A stretch of 64,000 nucleotides of DNA from Dehalococcoidia bacterium (GTDB lineage Bacteria; Chloroflexota; Dehalococcoidia; UBA6926), in assembly GCA_963666115.2 (NCBI GenBank), contig CAXXET010000006.1, positions 512,001-576,000 of the forward strand, read 5' to 3'. The notes beneath the pieces are model-generated. The model made no database searches. It saw only the letters and a program-made list of their open reading frames with translations, and was not told the DNA's origin. How positions within the stretch are numbered: the stretch's first letter is position 1; each line of letters starts with the position of its first letter. Positions 6,601 to 39,209 of the stretch are shown one piece after another. The position numbers and the translations under genes were made by a program.

Positions 6601-6676
6601 TCCGCGGTAGCTCAGTCGGTAGAGCGGTCGGCTGTTAACCGATTGGTCGTAGGTTCGAGTCCTACCCGCGGAGCCA
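6601..6676 (+). tRNA. tRNA-Asn(GTT)
   Basis: TCCGCGG acceptor, D arm, anticodon loop CTGTTAA, GTTCGAG T-loop, encoded CCA. Confidence 0.97.
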
Positions 6677-21330: not shown

Positions 21331-21403
21331 GCCGAGGTAGCTCAGGTGGTAGAGCACGCGACTGAAAATCGCGGTGTCGGCAGTTCAACTCTGCCCCTCG
21401 GCA
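21331..21403 (+). tRNA. tRNA-Phe(GAA), CCA not encoded
   Basis: GCCGAGG/CCTCGGC acceptor, anticodon loop CTGAAAA, GTTCAAC T-loop. Confidence 0.95.
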
Positions 21404-21424: not shown

Positions 21425-21499
21425 GCGGAAGTGGCGCAGTGGTAGCGCGTCTCCTTGCCAAGGAGAAGGTCGCGGGTTCAAATCCCGTCTTCCGCTCCA
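21425..21499 (+). tRNA. tRNA-Gly(GCC)
   Basis: GCGGAAG/CTTCCGC acceptor, anticodon loop TTGCCAA, encoded CCA. Confidence 0.96.
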
Positions 21500-32251: not shown

Positions 32252-33442
32252 TTACCTTGGCAGGCCGAGGCCGCGTTGGGCGATGATGTTTAGTTGGATT
32301 TCGCGGCCGCCGCCGGCGAAGCGGTTCATCCAGCTTAGGTACGCGTTGACGGCGGGGTATCCGCCGAGGGGGGCTCGCGGCTCGCCTACGGTTAGGGCGG
32401 CGTGTTGGCCTAGTATGCGGGCTATTGTTTCATAGACGCGGGGCGTCATCTCATCGTGGAAGAGCTTGGAGAATGCTGCCTCCATCATCGGAACCTCGCC
32501 CTTGCTCTGGATCGACGCGACCTGCAGGGCGAGCATGCGCCCGGTCTCGATGAGGATGCGGGCCTCTGCCAGGAGGTGGCGCGTCCGCTTGCCGTCGATG
32601 AGCCGGCCGCCATCGATGCGCGCCTCGCGGGCGTAGTCGATGAACCGCTCAAGGTCGCGCAGCCGCCGTGCCGGGGCCTCGATCTGCGAGCGTTCAAAGG
32701 ACAAGGTCGTCATGGCGGCGTACCAGCCGCGATTCTCCTCGCCGATGACGTTGCGGGAGGGCACGCGGACGTTGTCCAGGAAAATCTCGCTCCAGCGGCG
32801 GCGTCCCAGCGCGTCCATAAGCGGGCGCTTCACCACGCCCGGCGTGTTCATGTCGATGATCAGGTAGGAAATGCCCCGGTGTTTCGGCGCGTCCGGGTCC
32901 GTTCGCACGAGATAGTGGCCCCAATCGACCCAAGGGTGGTGGCCCTGGCTGTTCCATATCTTCTGGCCGGTCACGATCCAGTCGTCGCCGTCGCGCACGG
33001 CGCGGGTCTGGAGGTTGGCGAGGTCTGCGCCCGCGTTCGGCTCGCTGAAACCCTGCGACCATGAGATGAGTTCACCACTGGCAATCTTTGGCAGGAAGAA
33101 GTCCCGCTGCCAGGGCTGGCCGTGGAACATGAGCATGGGCGCTTCAAAGCCCGGCTGGGCGATAGGCGCGCCGCGATAGGCCATCTCCTCGCGGTAGGCG
33201 ATCTGGGTGGTGAAGGGGACGGCCTGCCCGCCGTATTCGTGGGGCCAGTGCATGGTGTACCAGCCCTTCTCGGCCAGCTTTCGCGTGAACTCCTGGAACA
33301 GGACCTCGTCCTCGGGCGTATCGACGTCATAGGAATAGACGGAATTGATGTGTGATTCGTAGGGGGAGTTCCAGTTGGCCTCCACGAATTCGCGCACCTC
33401 CCGGCGCAGCGCGATGTCCTGTTCCGAATAACTGAAGTCCAT
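32252..33442 (-). CDS. Acyl-CoA dehydrogenase, paralog of 25785-26975
   Basis: Same motifs, high visible identity (NSVYSYDV, FSKLFHDEMTP, YLSWMNRFAGGG). Confidence 0.93.
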   Translation of the reverse strand: MDFSYSEQDIALRREVREFVEANWNSPYESHINSVYSYDVDTPEDEVLFQEFTRKLAEKGWYTMHWPHEYGGQAVPFTTQIAYREEMAYRGAPIAQPGFEAPMLMFHGQPWQRDFFLPKIASGELISWSQGFSEPNAGADLANLQTRAVRDGDDWIVTGQKIWNSQGHHPWVDWGHYLVRTDPDAPKHRGISYLIIDMNTPGVVKRPLMDALGRRRWSEIFLDNVRVPSRNVIGEENRGWYAAMTTLSFERSQIEAPARRLRDLERFIDYAREARIDGGRLIDGKRTRHLLAEARILIETGRMLALQVASIQSKGEVPMMEAAFSKLFHDEMTPRVYETIARILGQHAALTVGEPRAPLGGYPAVNAYLSWMNRFAGGGREIQLNIIAQRGLGLPR

Positions 33443-33557
33443 GTCCGACACCGTCCTTTCCCCGTCCGTGCGCCGCTACTATGCCCCTGTTCTTGTGGCG
33501 CAAGCAAGCCGCCGCGACACGCGCGAGAGCAAAATGGAACAAATCATCCAAAAGGGG

Positions 33558-33586
33558 TTGACAAGCGAACGCGCGTTCGGTAGAGT
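33558..33586 (+). promoter_or_regulatory. Sigma70 promoter with embedded LexA-type (Cheo) box
   Basis: TTGACA(33558)-17 nt-TAGAGT(33581); CGAAC-GCGC-GTTCG at 33566-33579. Confidence 0.78.
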
Positions 33587-33592
33587 GGGTTC

Positions 33593-33718
33593 ACTCCTCC
33601 TTCTCCCAGACCATCTCCCCGCGCAAAAGGATGGATGGGAGAACGGCGCTTCCCGAGGGTAGGGGAACAGCGCCACAGCGATGCGGCGGGGCGGGCAACC
33701 GCCCCGCCGCGTTCTTTA
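33593..33718 (+). ncRNA. Candidate small RNA (three hairpins, last is a terminator)
   Basis: Promoter upstream; stems TTCTCCCA/TGGGAGAA, GGCGCT/AGCGCC; 12-bp GC hairpin with GCAA loop followed by GTTCTTT. Confidence 0.6.
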
Positions 33719-33811
33719 TCCGCCATGCACTCCTGCCGCCTGTTGCCTAGCCGCGAATGCCGCCCGTATAATGGCGCTTGCGCCAAAATCTTGATGTGGG
33801 GGAAGGTGAGA

Positions 33812-34219
33812 TTGAATGCTCTAGGGACACACGTGCTGGTGGAACTCCGCGATTGTGACGCTACTGCGCTCAATGATCTGCGAATCGTTGAATCCGCGCT
33901 CATCGACGCAGCGAGACGCATCAGCGCAACGATCATCGGACACGCTTTCCACCAGTTCAGCCCCCAGGGCGTCACCGGCGTCGTCATCATTGCCGAATCC
34001 CACATCTGCATCCACACGTGGCCGGAGCACGGCTACGCCGCCGTTGACATCTTTACGTGCGGCGATACGTCGGGCCTTGAAGATGCCACCGAGCATATTG
34101 CCAGGGCCTTCGGTTCGCAGGACCGGTCGGTCGTCACACTCCACCGCGGGCAATTCGATCCGGCCGTGAGCGCTGCGGCGCGCGCGGCGCCGGATTTGGC
34201 CGGTGTCGCAGGCGCCTGA
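33812..34219 (+). CDS. speD: S-adenosylmethionine decarboxylase proenzyme
   Basis: ESHICIHTWPE self-cleavage site, DIFTCG; TTG start after GAAGGTG. Confidence 0.92.
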   Translation: MNALGTHVLVELRDCDATALNDLRIVESALIDAARRISATIIGHAFHQFSPQGVTGVVIIAESHICIHTWPEHGYAAVDIFTCGDTSGLEDATEHIARAFGSQDRSVVTLHRGQFDPAVSAAARAAPDLAGVAGA

Positions 34220-36995: not shown

Positions 36996-39209
36996 ATGAC
37001 CACCGAAGCCGCGCGGGATATCCTCCGGAACCTCAATGAGGATCAGCGCCGCGCCGTGGAGGCCGTTGGCGGCCCCGTCCTGATCATCGCCGGGCCCGGC
37101 TCCGGCAAGACGCGCGTCATCACGCACCGCATCGCCTATCTCGTGCGGACGCTCCAGGTCAATCCGCGGCGCATCCTTGCGGTCACGTTCACGAACAGGG
37201 CGGCGCGGGAGATGCGCTCACGCGTTGAGGGAATCATCGGCGACCGCGCGGGACAGTTGACGATGGGGACGTTTCACGCTTTTGGGGCGCGGATTTTGCG
37301 GCAATACGGGGAGGAGATACACGTTCCCGACGATTTTGTCATCTACGACCAGGATGATCAGACAAGCCTGATGAAGCGCGCCGCCGAAGCGGAGGGGCTT
37401 GATACGAAGACGTACCGGCCCGCCTCGCTGCTCGATGCCGTCAGCGGGGCGAAGAACAGGATGCAGACCGTAGGCGAATACTCGGCGCAGGCCGGAAACC
37501 GCTACGAGAGAATCGTGGCCTCGTGCTATGACAGGTATGAGCAGCTCCTGCAGGCCGCCCACGCGGTGGACTTCGACGACCTGCTGATGAAGCCCGTCCT
37601 GCTGCTGCGCTCGAATCCCGAGATACTGGACAAGCTGCAAAACCGCTATGACCACGTGATGGTTGACGAGTGGCAGGACACGAATCGCGCGCAATATGAA
37701 CTTACGCGCTTTGTCGCCGGCAAGCATCGCAATTTGTGCGTCGTCGGCGACCCGGACCAGTCCATCTACTCGTGGAGACACGCCGATATTGAGAACATCC
37801 TGCGCTTTGAGCGCGACTTCCCGGAGACGCAGACGATTCCTCTCGGACGCAATTACCGCTCCACGTCCACCATCGTCGATGCCGCCCACGCCCTCGTGAA
37901 AGCCAACACGGAGCGCAAGGAAATCGAGTTGACGGCGGCGAAGGGCAGCGGCAGGCCGGTCACGATCGAGCCGACCGATGATGAGGAATACGAGGCGCTG
38001 TACGTTGCGGAGGAGATCGAGCGGCTGGTGACTGAGGAATCCGGCCGGTACGGCGACTGCGCGATCATGTACCGCACGAACGCCCAGTCGCGCGCGTTTG
38101 AGGACGCGTTCAACCGCGCGGGGATTCGCTACCGCATCATCGGCGGGCTGCGCTTCTGGGAGCGGCGTGAGATCAGGGACGTTGTCGCGTACCTCCGCGT
38201 CCTGCGCAACCCGTTCGACGACATCAGCCTGTTGCGCATCGTCAATGTTCCAACGCGCGGCATCGGGCGGCGGTCGCTGGACCTCCTCCAGCAGTGGGCG
38301 GATGCCAACGGCGTGCCGCTGTACGCGGCCATGCAGGTTGCGGCGGACGGGCAGGAGGGGAACGCGCCGAGCCTGCCAACGCAGTCGTTGGGCGCAATCC
38401 GGGCGTTCGTCCAGATGATGACCGAACTGCTCGAGGCGCTGCGGGGCGAGGACATTCTTGAGTTCTTCGACCGGGTTCTGAACAGGACGGGCTACCGGGC
38501 ATTCCTGGAGGAGGACGAGAACGCAGAGGATCGGCTGGACAACGTGGAGGAGCTGCGGAATGTGGCGGCGACGTACCGGGCGCTCGCGCCTGAGGAAGCG
38601 TTCGGCGCTTTCCTGGACCAGATCGCGCTGTCCACAGACCTTGACGCCGCCATCCGCGACGAGAGTTCGGAGCGGCAGGACGCCGTGACGCTCATCACCC
38701 TGCACCAGGCCAAAGGGCTGGAGTTCCCCGCCGCGTTCATCGTCGGGTGCGAGGAGGAGCTGCTGCCGCATATCCGCTCTATCGAGTCGGGCGATTCGGG
38801 GGAGATGGAGGAGGAGCGCCGCCTGTGCTACGTGGGCATGACGCGGGCGATGGAGCGGCTGTATATGACGTACGCGCTGCGGCGCAACACGCGGGGGCAG
38901 TACGGCCCGCGCAAGGCGTCGCGCTTCCTCCAGAGCCTGCCCGACAACCTGGTCAAGCGGCGGATGCCGGCTCTCTTCGGCTTCTCCGGGCTGCGGGAGC
39001 CGATGCCGGAGCCGGAGTTGGACGTGCCAAAGCCGCCCGCGCCGTTCAGGCCCGGCGACCACGTGGGGCACGCGCGGTTCGGGCAGGGTGTTGTGGTAGC
39101 GTGTCTTGAAACGCCGACGCGGGATGATTTCGAGGTAACGGTCGCGTTCAAGGGCCAGGGCGTGAAGCGCCTGCTGGCCGGACTGGCGGGATTGGAGAAG
39201 CTGAACTGA
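36996..39209 (+). CDS. pcrA: ATP-dependent DNA helicase PcrA/UvrD
   Basis: AGPGSGKT, VDEWQDTN, GDPDQSIY, NYRST, HQAKGLEF, EERRLCYVGMTRA, C-terminal Tudor domain. Confidence 0.95.
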   Translation: MTTEAARDILRNLNEDQRRAVEAVGGPVLIIAGPGSGKTRVITHRIAYLVRTLQVNPRRILAVTFTNRAAREMRSRVEGIIGDRAGQLTMGTFHAFGARILRQYGEEIHVPDDFVIYDQDDQTSLMKRAAEAEGLDTKTYRPASLLDAVSGAKNRMQTVGEYSAQAGNRYERIVASCYDRYEQLLQAAHAVDFDDLLMKPVLLLRSNPEILDKLQNRYDHVMVDEWQDTNRAQYELTRFVAGKHRNLCVVGDPDQSIYSWRHADIENILRFERDFPETQTIPLGRNYRSTSTIVDAAHALVKANTERKEIELTAAKGSGRPVTIEPTDDEEYEALYVAEEIERLVTEESGRYGDCAIMYRTNAQSRAFEDAFNRAGIRYRIIGGLRFWERREIRDVVAYLRVLRNPFDDISLLRIVNVPTRGIGRRSLDLLQQWADANGVPLYAAMQVAADGQEGNAPSLPTQSLGAIRAFVQMMTELLEALRGEDILEFFDRVLNRTGYRAFLEEDENAEDRLDNVEELRNVAATYRALAPEEAFGAFLDQIALSTDLDAAIRDESSERQDAVTLITLHQAKGLEFPAAFIVGCEEELLPHIRSIESGDSGEMEEERRLCYVGMTRAMERLYMTYALRRNTRGQYGPRKASRFLQSLPDNLVKRRMPALFGFSGLREPMPEPELDVPKPPAPFRPGDHVGHARFGQGVVVACLETPTRDDFEVTVAFKGQGVKRLLAGLAGLEKLN

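Follow-up and report, generated by a model that had tools for sequence, protein, structure and literature searches.

A predicted LexA-controlled small RNA with an anti-Shine-Dalgarno-like 5' end in a genus of Dehalococcoidia

We analyzed a 64-kb stretch of the genome of a Dehalococcoidia bacterium (G000:C6:512001-576000, here called the window; coordinates given without a genome label are positions in it). The source genome, G000, measures 2.07 Mb in nine contigs, with 63% G+C and a completeness rating of 100%. Compared genomes carry labels of the same type (G0xx), and our genus set comprises 22 genomes including G000. Between a divergent acyl-CoA dehydrogenase gene (32252-33442, minus strand; PF00441, PF02770 and PF02771) and speD, encoding S-adenosylmethionine decarboxylase (33812-34219, plus strand; PF02675, E 2.3e-39), lies a predicted small RNA (sRNA) of ~126 nucleotides (nt) at 33593-33718 on the plus strand, recognized by its fold, its conservation and a covariance model built from 20 genus sequences (alignment A1). 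A putative LexA (SOS) box is embedded in its promoter, and we consider it likely that the locus is a free-standing LexA-controlled non-coding RNA gene.

An earlier note on this DNA had proposed a promoter with a palindrome in its spacer, and we located both by sequence inspection and a promoter scan. The near-consensus promoter TTGACA-17-TAGAGT occupies 33558-33586 on the plus strand. Its -35 hexamer TTGACA (33558-33563; 10/12 matches in the scan) is invariant in all 20 aligned genus sequences and is also present in G009 and G001, and the TAnnnT pattern of the -10 hexamer TAGAGT (33581-33586) is kept in all 22 genomes. Just upstream of the -35 hexamer, the A-rich stretch CAAATCATCCAAAAGGGG (33540-33557, plus strand) is near-identical in 16 of the 20 aligned sequences and is possibly an UP-like element. 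The 17-nt spacer, AGCGAACGCGCGTTCGG, contains the perfect palindrome CGAACGCGCGTTCG (33566-33579), which we assign as a putative LexA box by motif match and conservation. At this promoter the full CGAAC-N4-GTTCG 14-mer is found in 19 of the 22 genus genomes and the GAAC-N4-GTTC core in every one, with nine different forms of the four central bases. Conserved cores around a variable N4 are a dimeric protein's footprint rather than a sign of RNA or coding constraint. Since the box occupies the promoter spacer, LexA binding should shut the sRNA promoter.

The RNA is predicted to start at A33593, a position inferred from its 7-nt spacing to the -10 hexamer; the A at +1 is invariant in relatives, and the first bases of the transcript would be ACUCCUCC. 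The earlier note had described a ~125-nt transcript with two hairpins and a GC-rich terminator, and folding and a terminator scan bear this out. The minimum free energy (MFE) of 33593-33718 is -72.5 kcal/mol, where shuffles average -50.1 (z -5.73; none of 200 shuffles as good), and the MFE and centroid folds coincide in two hairpins followed by a GC terminator hairpin. At the 5' end lies an anti-Shine-Dalgarno-like seed, ACUCCUCCUUCUCCCA (33593-33608), in which nt 1-8 are unpaired; the part ACUCCUCCUU is invariant in 21 of the 22 genomes. Hairpin 1 (33601-33643) consists of an outer helix, UUCUCCCA/UGGGAGAA, and an inner helix, CCAUCU/GGAUGG, closed by a C-rich loop (CCCCGCGCAAAA, 33617-33628), and of the hairpin's 13 pairs, 5 have both partners altered in one or more genomes. 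Hairpin 2 (33645-33674; GGCGCUUCCC ... GGGG..AGCGCC) includes the block GGGUAGGGG, kept in 21 of 22 genomes; no compensatory changes were found in this hairpin among the 22 sequences, because the sequence hardly varies. The intrinsic terminator (33680-33719, plus strand) has a 13-15-bp GC-rich stem, a 4-nt loop and a U-rich tail, with compensatory changes across the genus in 10 of 13 pairs. Over the 22 sequences, 97.9% of cells in the model structure are paired, and 15 of 36 pairs are changed on both sides compared with 3-9 in slid controls, figures that come from an alignment fitted to the model, which favours structure.

The element is conserved throughout the genus. A 291-nt query matched the region in all 21 other genus genomes, and the covariance model scored 68-164 bits in 22 of 22. 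Outside the genus the same query returned only fragments of 23-31 nt, in 2 of 19 genomes. In G000 the sRNA is single-copy and the remaining model matches are terminator hairpins, among them an apparent second copy at C4:177312 (28.7 bits) that we rejected on this ground. An exact-pattern scan of 185,579 species genomes, one per species, found 25 loci, 15 of which pass the covariance model; all 15 are titled as Dehalococcoidia or Chloroflexota metagenome-assembled genomes, and the ten loci in other phyla fail it. A class-level model search of 151 genomes gave good matches only in eight genus members, G000 included, and 3 of the 143 non-genus genomes had matches of 22-28 bits that were taken for terminators without inspection. 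Searched with the model, five family- or order-level genomes gave nothing or the terminator only, and in the sister genus (G022) the syntenic region upstream of speD has neither box nor RNA. Mean pairwise identity is 90% in the RNA body versus 53% in the inner terminator stem; between G000 and G014, 64 of 89 body positions are identical, compared with 48.9% of 58,366 four-fold degenerate sites. Judged from this distribution and identity, the sRNA element is a genus-level innovation under strong constraint.

No described RNA family accounts for the element. The Rfam scan that the earlier note had suggested gave no family at gathering threshold in the 64-kb window, and at 33400-33900 it yielded only sub-threshold noise, mostly over the terminator. 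The 6C RNA (RF01066) has no match in G000 at its threshold of 47 bits and is absent from the matches at E<=10 on 33400-33900. CcsR1 (RF02791) reaches 11.9 bits, with a minus-strand match over the terminator, against a gathering score of 65.3, and RsaE has no Rfam match at E up to 10 on 33400-33900.

LexA control, also claimed in the earlier note, gains support from other promoters of the genus. G000 has one lexA (TIGR00498, 174.9 bits, above cut-off; C6:194748-195380) and one recA. The box CGAACAGGGGTTCG directly follows the -10 hexamer of lexA, 52-59 nt upstream of the gene, and the recA promoter carries two tandem boxes 67-73 nt upstream of recA. Each of the 22 genus genomes has CGAAC-N4-GTTCG ~65 nt upstream of lexA (22 of 23 lexA loci). 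Intergenic GAAC-N4-GTTC sites in G000 lie at lexA, recA, yifB/comM, a dcm methylase and the sRNA; in G014, intergenic boxes lie at lexA, recN (TIGR00634, above cut-off), yifB, a Y-family polymerase-like gene whose profile scores are below cut-offs, the gene for ribosomal protein L9, and the sRNA. The yifB/comM box is thus present in both genomes compared. The boxes at lexA, recA, yifB/comM, recN and the polymerase-like gene identify the motif as the SOS box of the lineage. In a classic study, the LexA of Dehalococcoides is reported to use the Gram-positive box.

Several other loci with such boxes deserve mention. The only lexA locus without an upstream SOS box is a second lexA-like gene in G010 (L076, G010:C6:52966-53145). 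The same 14-mer as in the sRNA promoter, CGAACGCGCGTTCG, recurs in G000 at C2:45085-45135 (L235), after a run of eleven C and just before the ATG of a ~1047-residue protein with an apparent signal peptide and no clear family; the site might mark a further LexA-controlled gene or be a chance occurrence, and the C tract might be variable. At G000:C8:145086 (L234) and C8:145628-146518, a box TGAACGCCTGTTCT precedes a DNA cytosine methylase (TIGR00675) by 34 nt, near an open reading frame (ORF) that we take to resemble a phage capsid protein, and this region may be a LexA-controlled prophage or restriction-modification island. A LexA-like box is also found 35-42 nt upstream of the gene for ribosomal protein L9 in both G014 (GGAACACACGTTCT, C1:1170060) and G000 (AGAACGCACGTACT, C7:190258-190848), an unusual location for an SOS box.

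The seed contains CCUCCUU, the core of the 3' tail of G000 16S rRNA (GGAUCACCUCCUUUCU), in agreement with the anti-Shine-Dalgarno 5' end that the earlier note had recognized. We scored every start region in G000 and G014 against the RNA of its own genome, with intragenic regions as controls, using our own gene calls and start codons (1949 genes in G000; 1657 in G014, from a fully fetched contig; 1356 orthologue pairs). The seed scored better against start regions than against controls (1st percentile -16.1 versus -13.6 kcal/mol), so it pairs preferentially with start regions, as expected for an anti-Shine-Dalgarno mimic. Action through anti-Shine-Dalgarno pairing is, on this evidence, an even bet. 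Two other parts of the RNA gave no signal above controls: for the loop of hairpin 1, start regions equal controls (1st percentile -19.6 versus -19.4), and for hairpin 2 the correlation between orthologues is nil (Spearman 0.01).

Among 1354 orthologue pairs, rsmH has the best joint rank for the seed (5/1946 in G000, 1/1656 in G014). The seed is complementary to the rsmH ribosome-binding site (G000:C9:35052-35071), and the duplex predicted for G000, interrupted by two single-base bulges, comprises 16 Watson-Crick pairs and spans -20 to -1. Against the true 16S anti-Shine-Dalgarno tail, rsmH ranks only 108 in G000 and 83 in G014, so it is not simply the strongest Shine-Dalgarno sequence. When mRNA accessibility is included, rsmH is the sole orthologue pair in the top 12 of both genomes. 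The pairing is predicted in all 22 genus genomes (-16.6 to -27.7 kcal/mol). In two genomes of the sister genus that lack the RNA, rsmH has a plain Shine-Dalgarno sequence (-17.3 and -16.3); for two order-level relatives the scores are -11.8 and -11.5. Downstream of rsmH follow an ftsA-like gene and ftsZ (PF00091, PF12327), and the scan found no plus-strand promoter or terminator match between these genes. We also evaluated lexA, recA, yifB, speD and the divergent dehydrogenase as targets, all with unremarkable ranks. The ftsZ start region itself ranks 427/1946 in G000 and 30/1656 in G014, and a two-site pairing on ftsZ was discarded: its GCGCGGG motif lies within the C-terminal codons of ftsA and the Shine-Dalgarno match is not conserved.

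The division cluster is minimal. In G000 (C9:35072-38250), rsmH, the ftsA-like gene and ftsZ are immediate neighbours, and neither mur genes nor further fts genes intervene. Every one of the 22 genus genomes keeps rsmH and ftsZ near each other, and a family-level relative, G023, has the cluster too.

These data suggest an RNA brake on division during the SOS response. In undamaged cells, a LexA dimer on the spacer box would exclude RNA polymerase from the promoter. Upon DNA damage, RecA-stimulated self-cleavage of LexA would free this strong promoter, and the sRNA would be transcribed to its own intrinsic terminator. It would then work in trans without Hfq, which was not found in G000: its unpaired 5' end, ACUCCUCCUU, would imitate the 16S anti-Shine-Dalgarno tail, pair with purine-rich ribosome-binding sites and block binding of the 30S subunit. 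The RNA's main target would most likely be the rsmH ribosome-binding site, rsmH being the gene that opens the rsmH-ftsA-ftsZ cluster. If rsmH is indeed the target, synthesis of division proteins would fall and division would be delayed until repair is complete. We hold this explanation, with no specific target named, to be somewhat more probable than its alternatives taken together; that rsmH-ftsA-ftsZ is the key target is a tentative proposal. A bolder version is doubtful: an RNA-only SOS division checkpoint that replaces SulA/YneA/SosA-type inhibitors in a peptidoglycan-poor genus devoid of Hfq and SulA, the RNA and an extended complementary rsmH leader having emerged jointly when the genus arose. 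Of the three inhibitors, SulA (PF03846) was the one looked for, and G000 gave no match.

A number of points weigh against this scheme. With respect to LexA, binding is predicted from the motif, and the box by itself does not exceed chance: 3.78 per window are expected at <=1 mismatch, and at least one occurs in 93 of 100 shuffles. The G000 genome as a whole (2.07 Mb) has 3 perfect 14-mers and 12 GAAC-N4-GTTC sites, a count that is not above chance and is close to the base-composition expectation by our own estimate. What goes beyond chance is the position and conservation of the box, since all 22 genus genomes retain the promoter, the box and the RNA. The start site and 3' end of the sRNA are predictions, and nt 9-16, half of the seed, are hidden in helix 1. 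With respect to targets, the ranks rest on crude gene calls and start codons, the energies form a continuum with no outlier, four other G000 start regions outscore rsmH, and accessibility lowers rsmH to 7th in G000 and 3rd in G014. Seeds pair no better with their own rsmH than with those of other genomes (12 distinct types, permutation p 0.28), so co-variation lends the seed-rsmH pairing no support. The ftsA-like assignment, at 28 bits, falls below the Pfam cut-off of 31.8; co-transcription of rsmH through ftsZ is an assumption; and the link to division is a post-hoc reading of a ranked list. Finally, the near-invariant 90-nt body would fit a protein-binding or complex structured RNA at least as well as a pairing one.

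Five other explanations bear on the same data. The one that survives best, although we regard it as unlikely, is a broad translation throttle, in which an abundant SOS RNA would vie with ribosomes for a large number of Shine-Dalgarno sequences, strong or extended, and slow growth generally, with no single key target. The anti-Shine-Dalgarno core in the seed would fit such a role, as would the correlation, across all start regions, of the energies for the seed with those for the anti-Shine-Dalgarno tail (r 0.74 and 0.70). Many metabolic genes score near rsmH, and a near-consensus promoter makes high RNA levels plausible. To compete with ribosomes, however, the RNA would have to be extremely abundant. 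Conservation of the seed over 16 nt, beyond the core, speaks for specific targets, and so does the confinement of extended rsmH complementarity to the RNA-bearing genus.

Less probable still is an SOS-induced RNA that binds or sequesters a protein (an RNA-binding regulator, nuclease or repair factor, for example) instead of pairing with mRNA. The ~90% identity of the 90-nt body, in which helix 3 and GGGUAGGGG hardly vary while neutral sites are saturated, exceeds what a seed alone would need. For the 6C RNA of C. glutamicum, the authors left mRNA and protein targets open (PMC5014011). Yet nothing in our data indicates a protein partner, Hfq was not detected in G000, and among the single-stranded parts of the molecule the free 5' end varies least, as a seed would.

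The RNA could in principle be a by-product of an SOS-responsive leader or extra promoter for speD-speE, with a leaky or regulated terminator through which damage would raise polyamine synthesis. The earlier note had itself raised the possibility of a speD 5' untranslated region or attenuator. In G000 and 13 of the 20 aligned relatives, speD begins 94 nt after the RNA on the same strand, and in many species a short U-tract follows the terminator. Against this, compensatory changes preserve the 13-15-bp GC-rich terminator stem, and the fold offers the terminator's 5' half no alternative partner. speD keeps a promoter-like site of its own, TTGCCT-18-TATAAT (33743-33772, plus strand; found by scan), as the earlier note had supposed from its -10, and this site stays with speD where the RNA is separated from it. 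Of 21 relatives, seven show such separation: the distance is 0.4-3.8 kb in six, and in the seventh the two are on different contigs; other DNA lies between, or a convergent gene follows the RNA, as in G021, where the convergent gene ends 22 nt from the RNA 3' end. The sister genus has speD without the element. A speD riboswitch or attenuator was rejected because the two are non-contiguous in these relatives, because Rfam returned no cis-regulatory match and because no fold competes with the terminator. We therefore consider a speD leader very improbable.

In G008, the DNA between RNA and speD, a gap of ~0.8 kb (L016:1785-2455), contains an ORF of 129 amino acids with a PIN domain (PF01850, 1.1e-16) after one of 94 amino acids (NikA-like, 24.5 bits, below cut-off), and these profiles suggest a toxin-antitoxin pair of the VapBC type. 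G005, G006, G009 and G014 have gaps of 0.4-0.9 kb at the same spot.

It is slightly less probable again that the palindrome is the operator of another repressor, for example one acting on the divergent acyl-CoA dehydrogenase operon, and that its likeness to a LexA box is coincidental. Some 125 nt separate the box from the start of the dehydrogenase gene, and box and gene are neighbours wherever we examined the locus (an acyl-CoA dehydrogenase-like ORF in G008, a large divergent ORF in G021); the chance-level genome counts would also be compatible with this explanation. But the box sits in a plus-strand promoter spacer and not at the dehydrogenase start, and identical half-sites occur at lexA, recA, recN and yifB in the same genomes. 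The seven neighbours scanned with Pfam encode a CoA-transferase, a protein without Pfam match, the acyl-CoA dehydrogenase, SpeD, SpeE, a thiamine pyrophosphate (TPP) enzyme and a UvrD/PcrA helicase, with no regulator gene, TetR-type or other, among them. The TetR operator that the earlier note had considered is hence not supported. None of the refuting conditions set out in that note, all of them checked in silico, was borne out.

Finally, that the transcript encodes a small protein has almost no probability: ATG frames of 39 amino acids (33631-33750) and 194 amino acids (33635-34219) do cross the region, but inspection of the genus alignment found no conserved ORF over the sRNA, as the earlier note had held, with both frames broken by 1-nt indels between species (A1 columns 22, 39, 71 and 83), the first frame stopping after ~15 codons in G014, both running through the terminator, and no three-base substitution pattern visible by eye.

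Further along the window, a UvrD/PcrA-type helicase gene (36996-39209, plus strand) lies 3.3 kb downstream of the sRNA, after speD, speE and the TPP enzyme gene; a window scan found no perfect or one-mismatch box upstream of it. The Rfam scan also placed three tRNA genes on the plus strand of the window, at 6601-6673, 21331-21403 and 21425-21496.

RNAs directly controlled by LexA are rare, and those known to be linked to LexA are antitoxin-type antisense RNAs, a processed 3' untranslated region and the partly repressed 6C RNA. If our interpretation is correct, the Dehalococcoidia sRNA would be a clean stand-alone SOS sRNA with a fully operator-occluded promoter, in Chloroflexota, and a possible answer to how division is restrained during repair in bacteria without SulA-like proteins. 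The covariance model can be used to annotate metagenome-assembled genomes of the genus. A full-text literature search, judged from titles and abstract openings, found no such RNA described in Dehalococcoidia or Chloroflexi.

DinR of Klebsiella pneumoniae is a LexA-controlled RNA that occupies the ftsZ ribosome-binding site and delays division; it arises by processing from the dinI 3' end and depends on Hfq (PMC10907235). The sRNA described here resembles DinR in being an RNA arm of the SOS response, in the LexA box at its promoter and in its proposed pairing at a ribosome-binding site of the division machinery. It differs in having its own promoter and terminator, in a candidate site at rsmH and not ftsZ, and in showing no sequence similarity. 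We rejected assignment as a DinR-type sRNA on account of this promoter, the failure to find Hfq in G000 and the ftsZ ranks given above.

The 6C RNA of C. glutamicum has a LexA operator upstream of its -35 hexamer and shows only two- to three-fold derepression of what is an abundant RNA; after mitomycin C, division and morphology are influenced by its abundance (PMC5014011). The 6C RNA (RF01066, Actinobacteria) and our sRNA are alike in being small and highly structured, with C-rich single-stranded motifs and a LexA operator at the promoter; in our sRNA, however, the box fills the spacer, RF01066 does not match and the host belongs to another phylum. IstR/tisB and AgrB/dinQ of E. coli involve small RNAs tied to the LexA regulon that are antisense to SOS-induced toxin genes at the same locus (PMC5014011, PMC2577331). 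Unlike the loci of these RNAs, the sRNA locus has neither a toxin ORF nor an antisense partner.

A place in the circuit like the one proposed here, a LexA-repressed block to division, is held by the SOS division inhibitors SulA, YneA and SosA (see PMC10907235). Those inhibitors are proteins that act on FtsZ or the divisome, whereas here the agent would be an RNA.

The sRNAs of the RsaE/RoxS and CcsR types use C/U-rich unpaired motifs that pair with Shine-Dalgarno sequences where Hfq is dispensable, and their control lies with redox or oxidative-stress regulators, not with LexA. The proposed C/U-rich unpaired motif directed against Shine-Dalgarno sequences is common to them and the Dehalococcoidia sRNA, which has a LexA-type box. 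From its sequence features, then, the Dehalococcoidia sRNA would be set apart from the known SOS RNAs by an unrelated sequence family, its own fully occluded promoter, an anti-Shine-Dalgarno-like 5' seed and its occurrence in an apparently Hfq-less Chloroflexota lineage.

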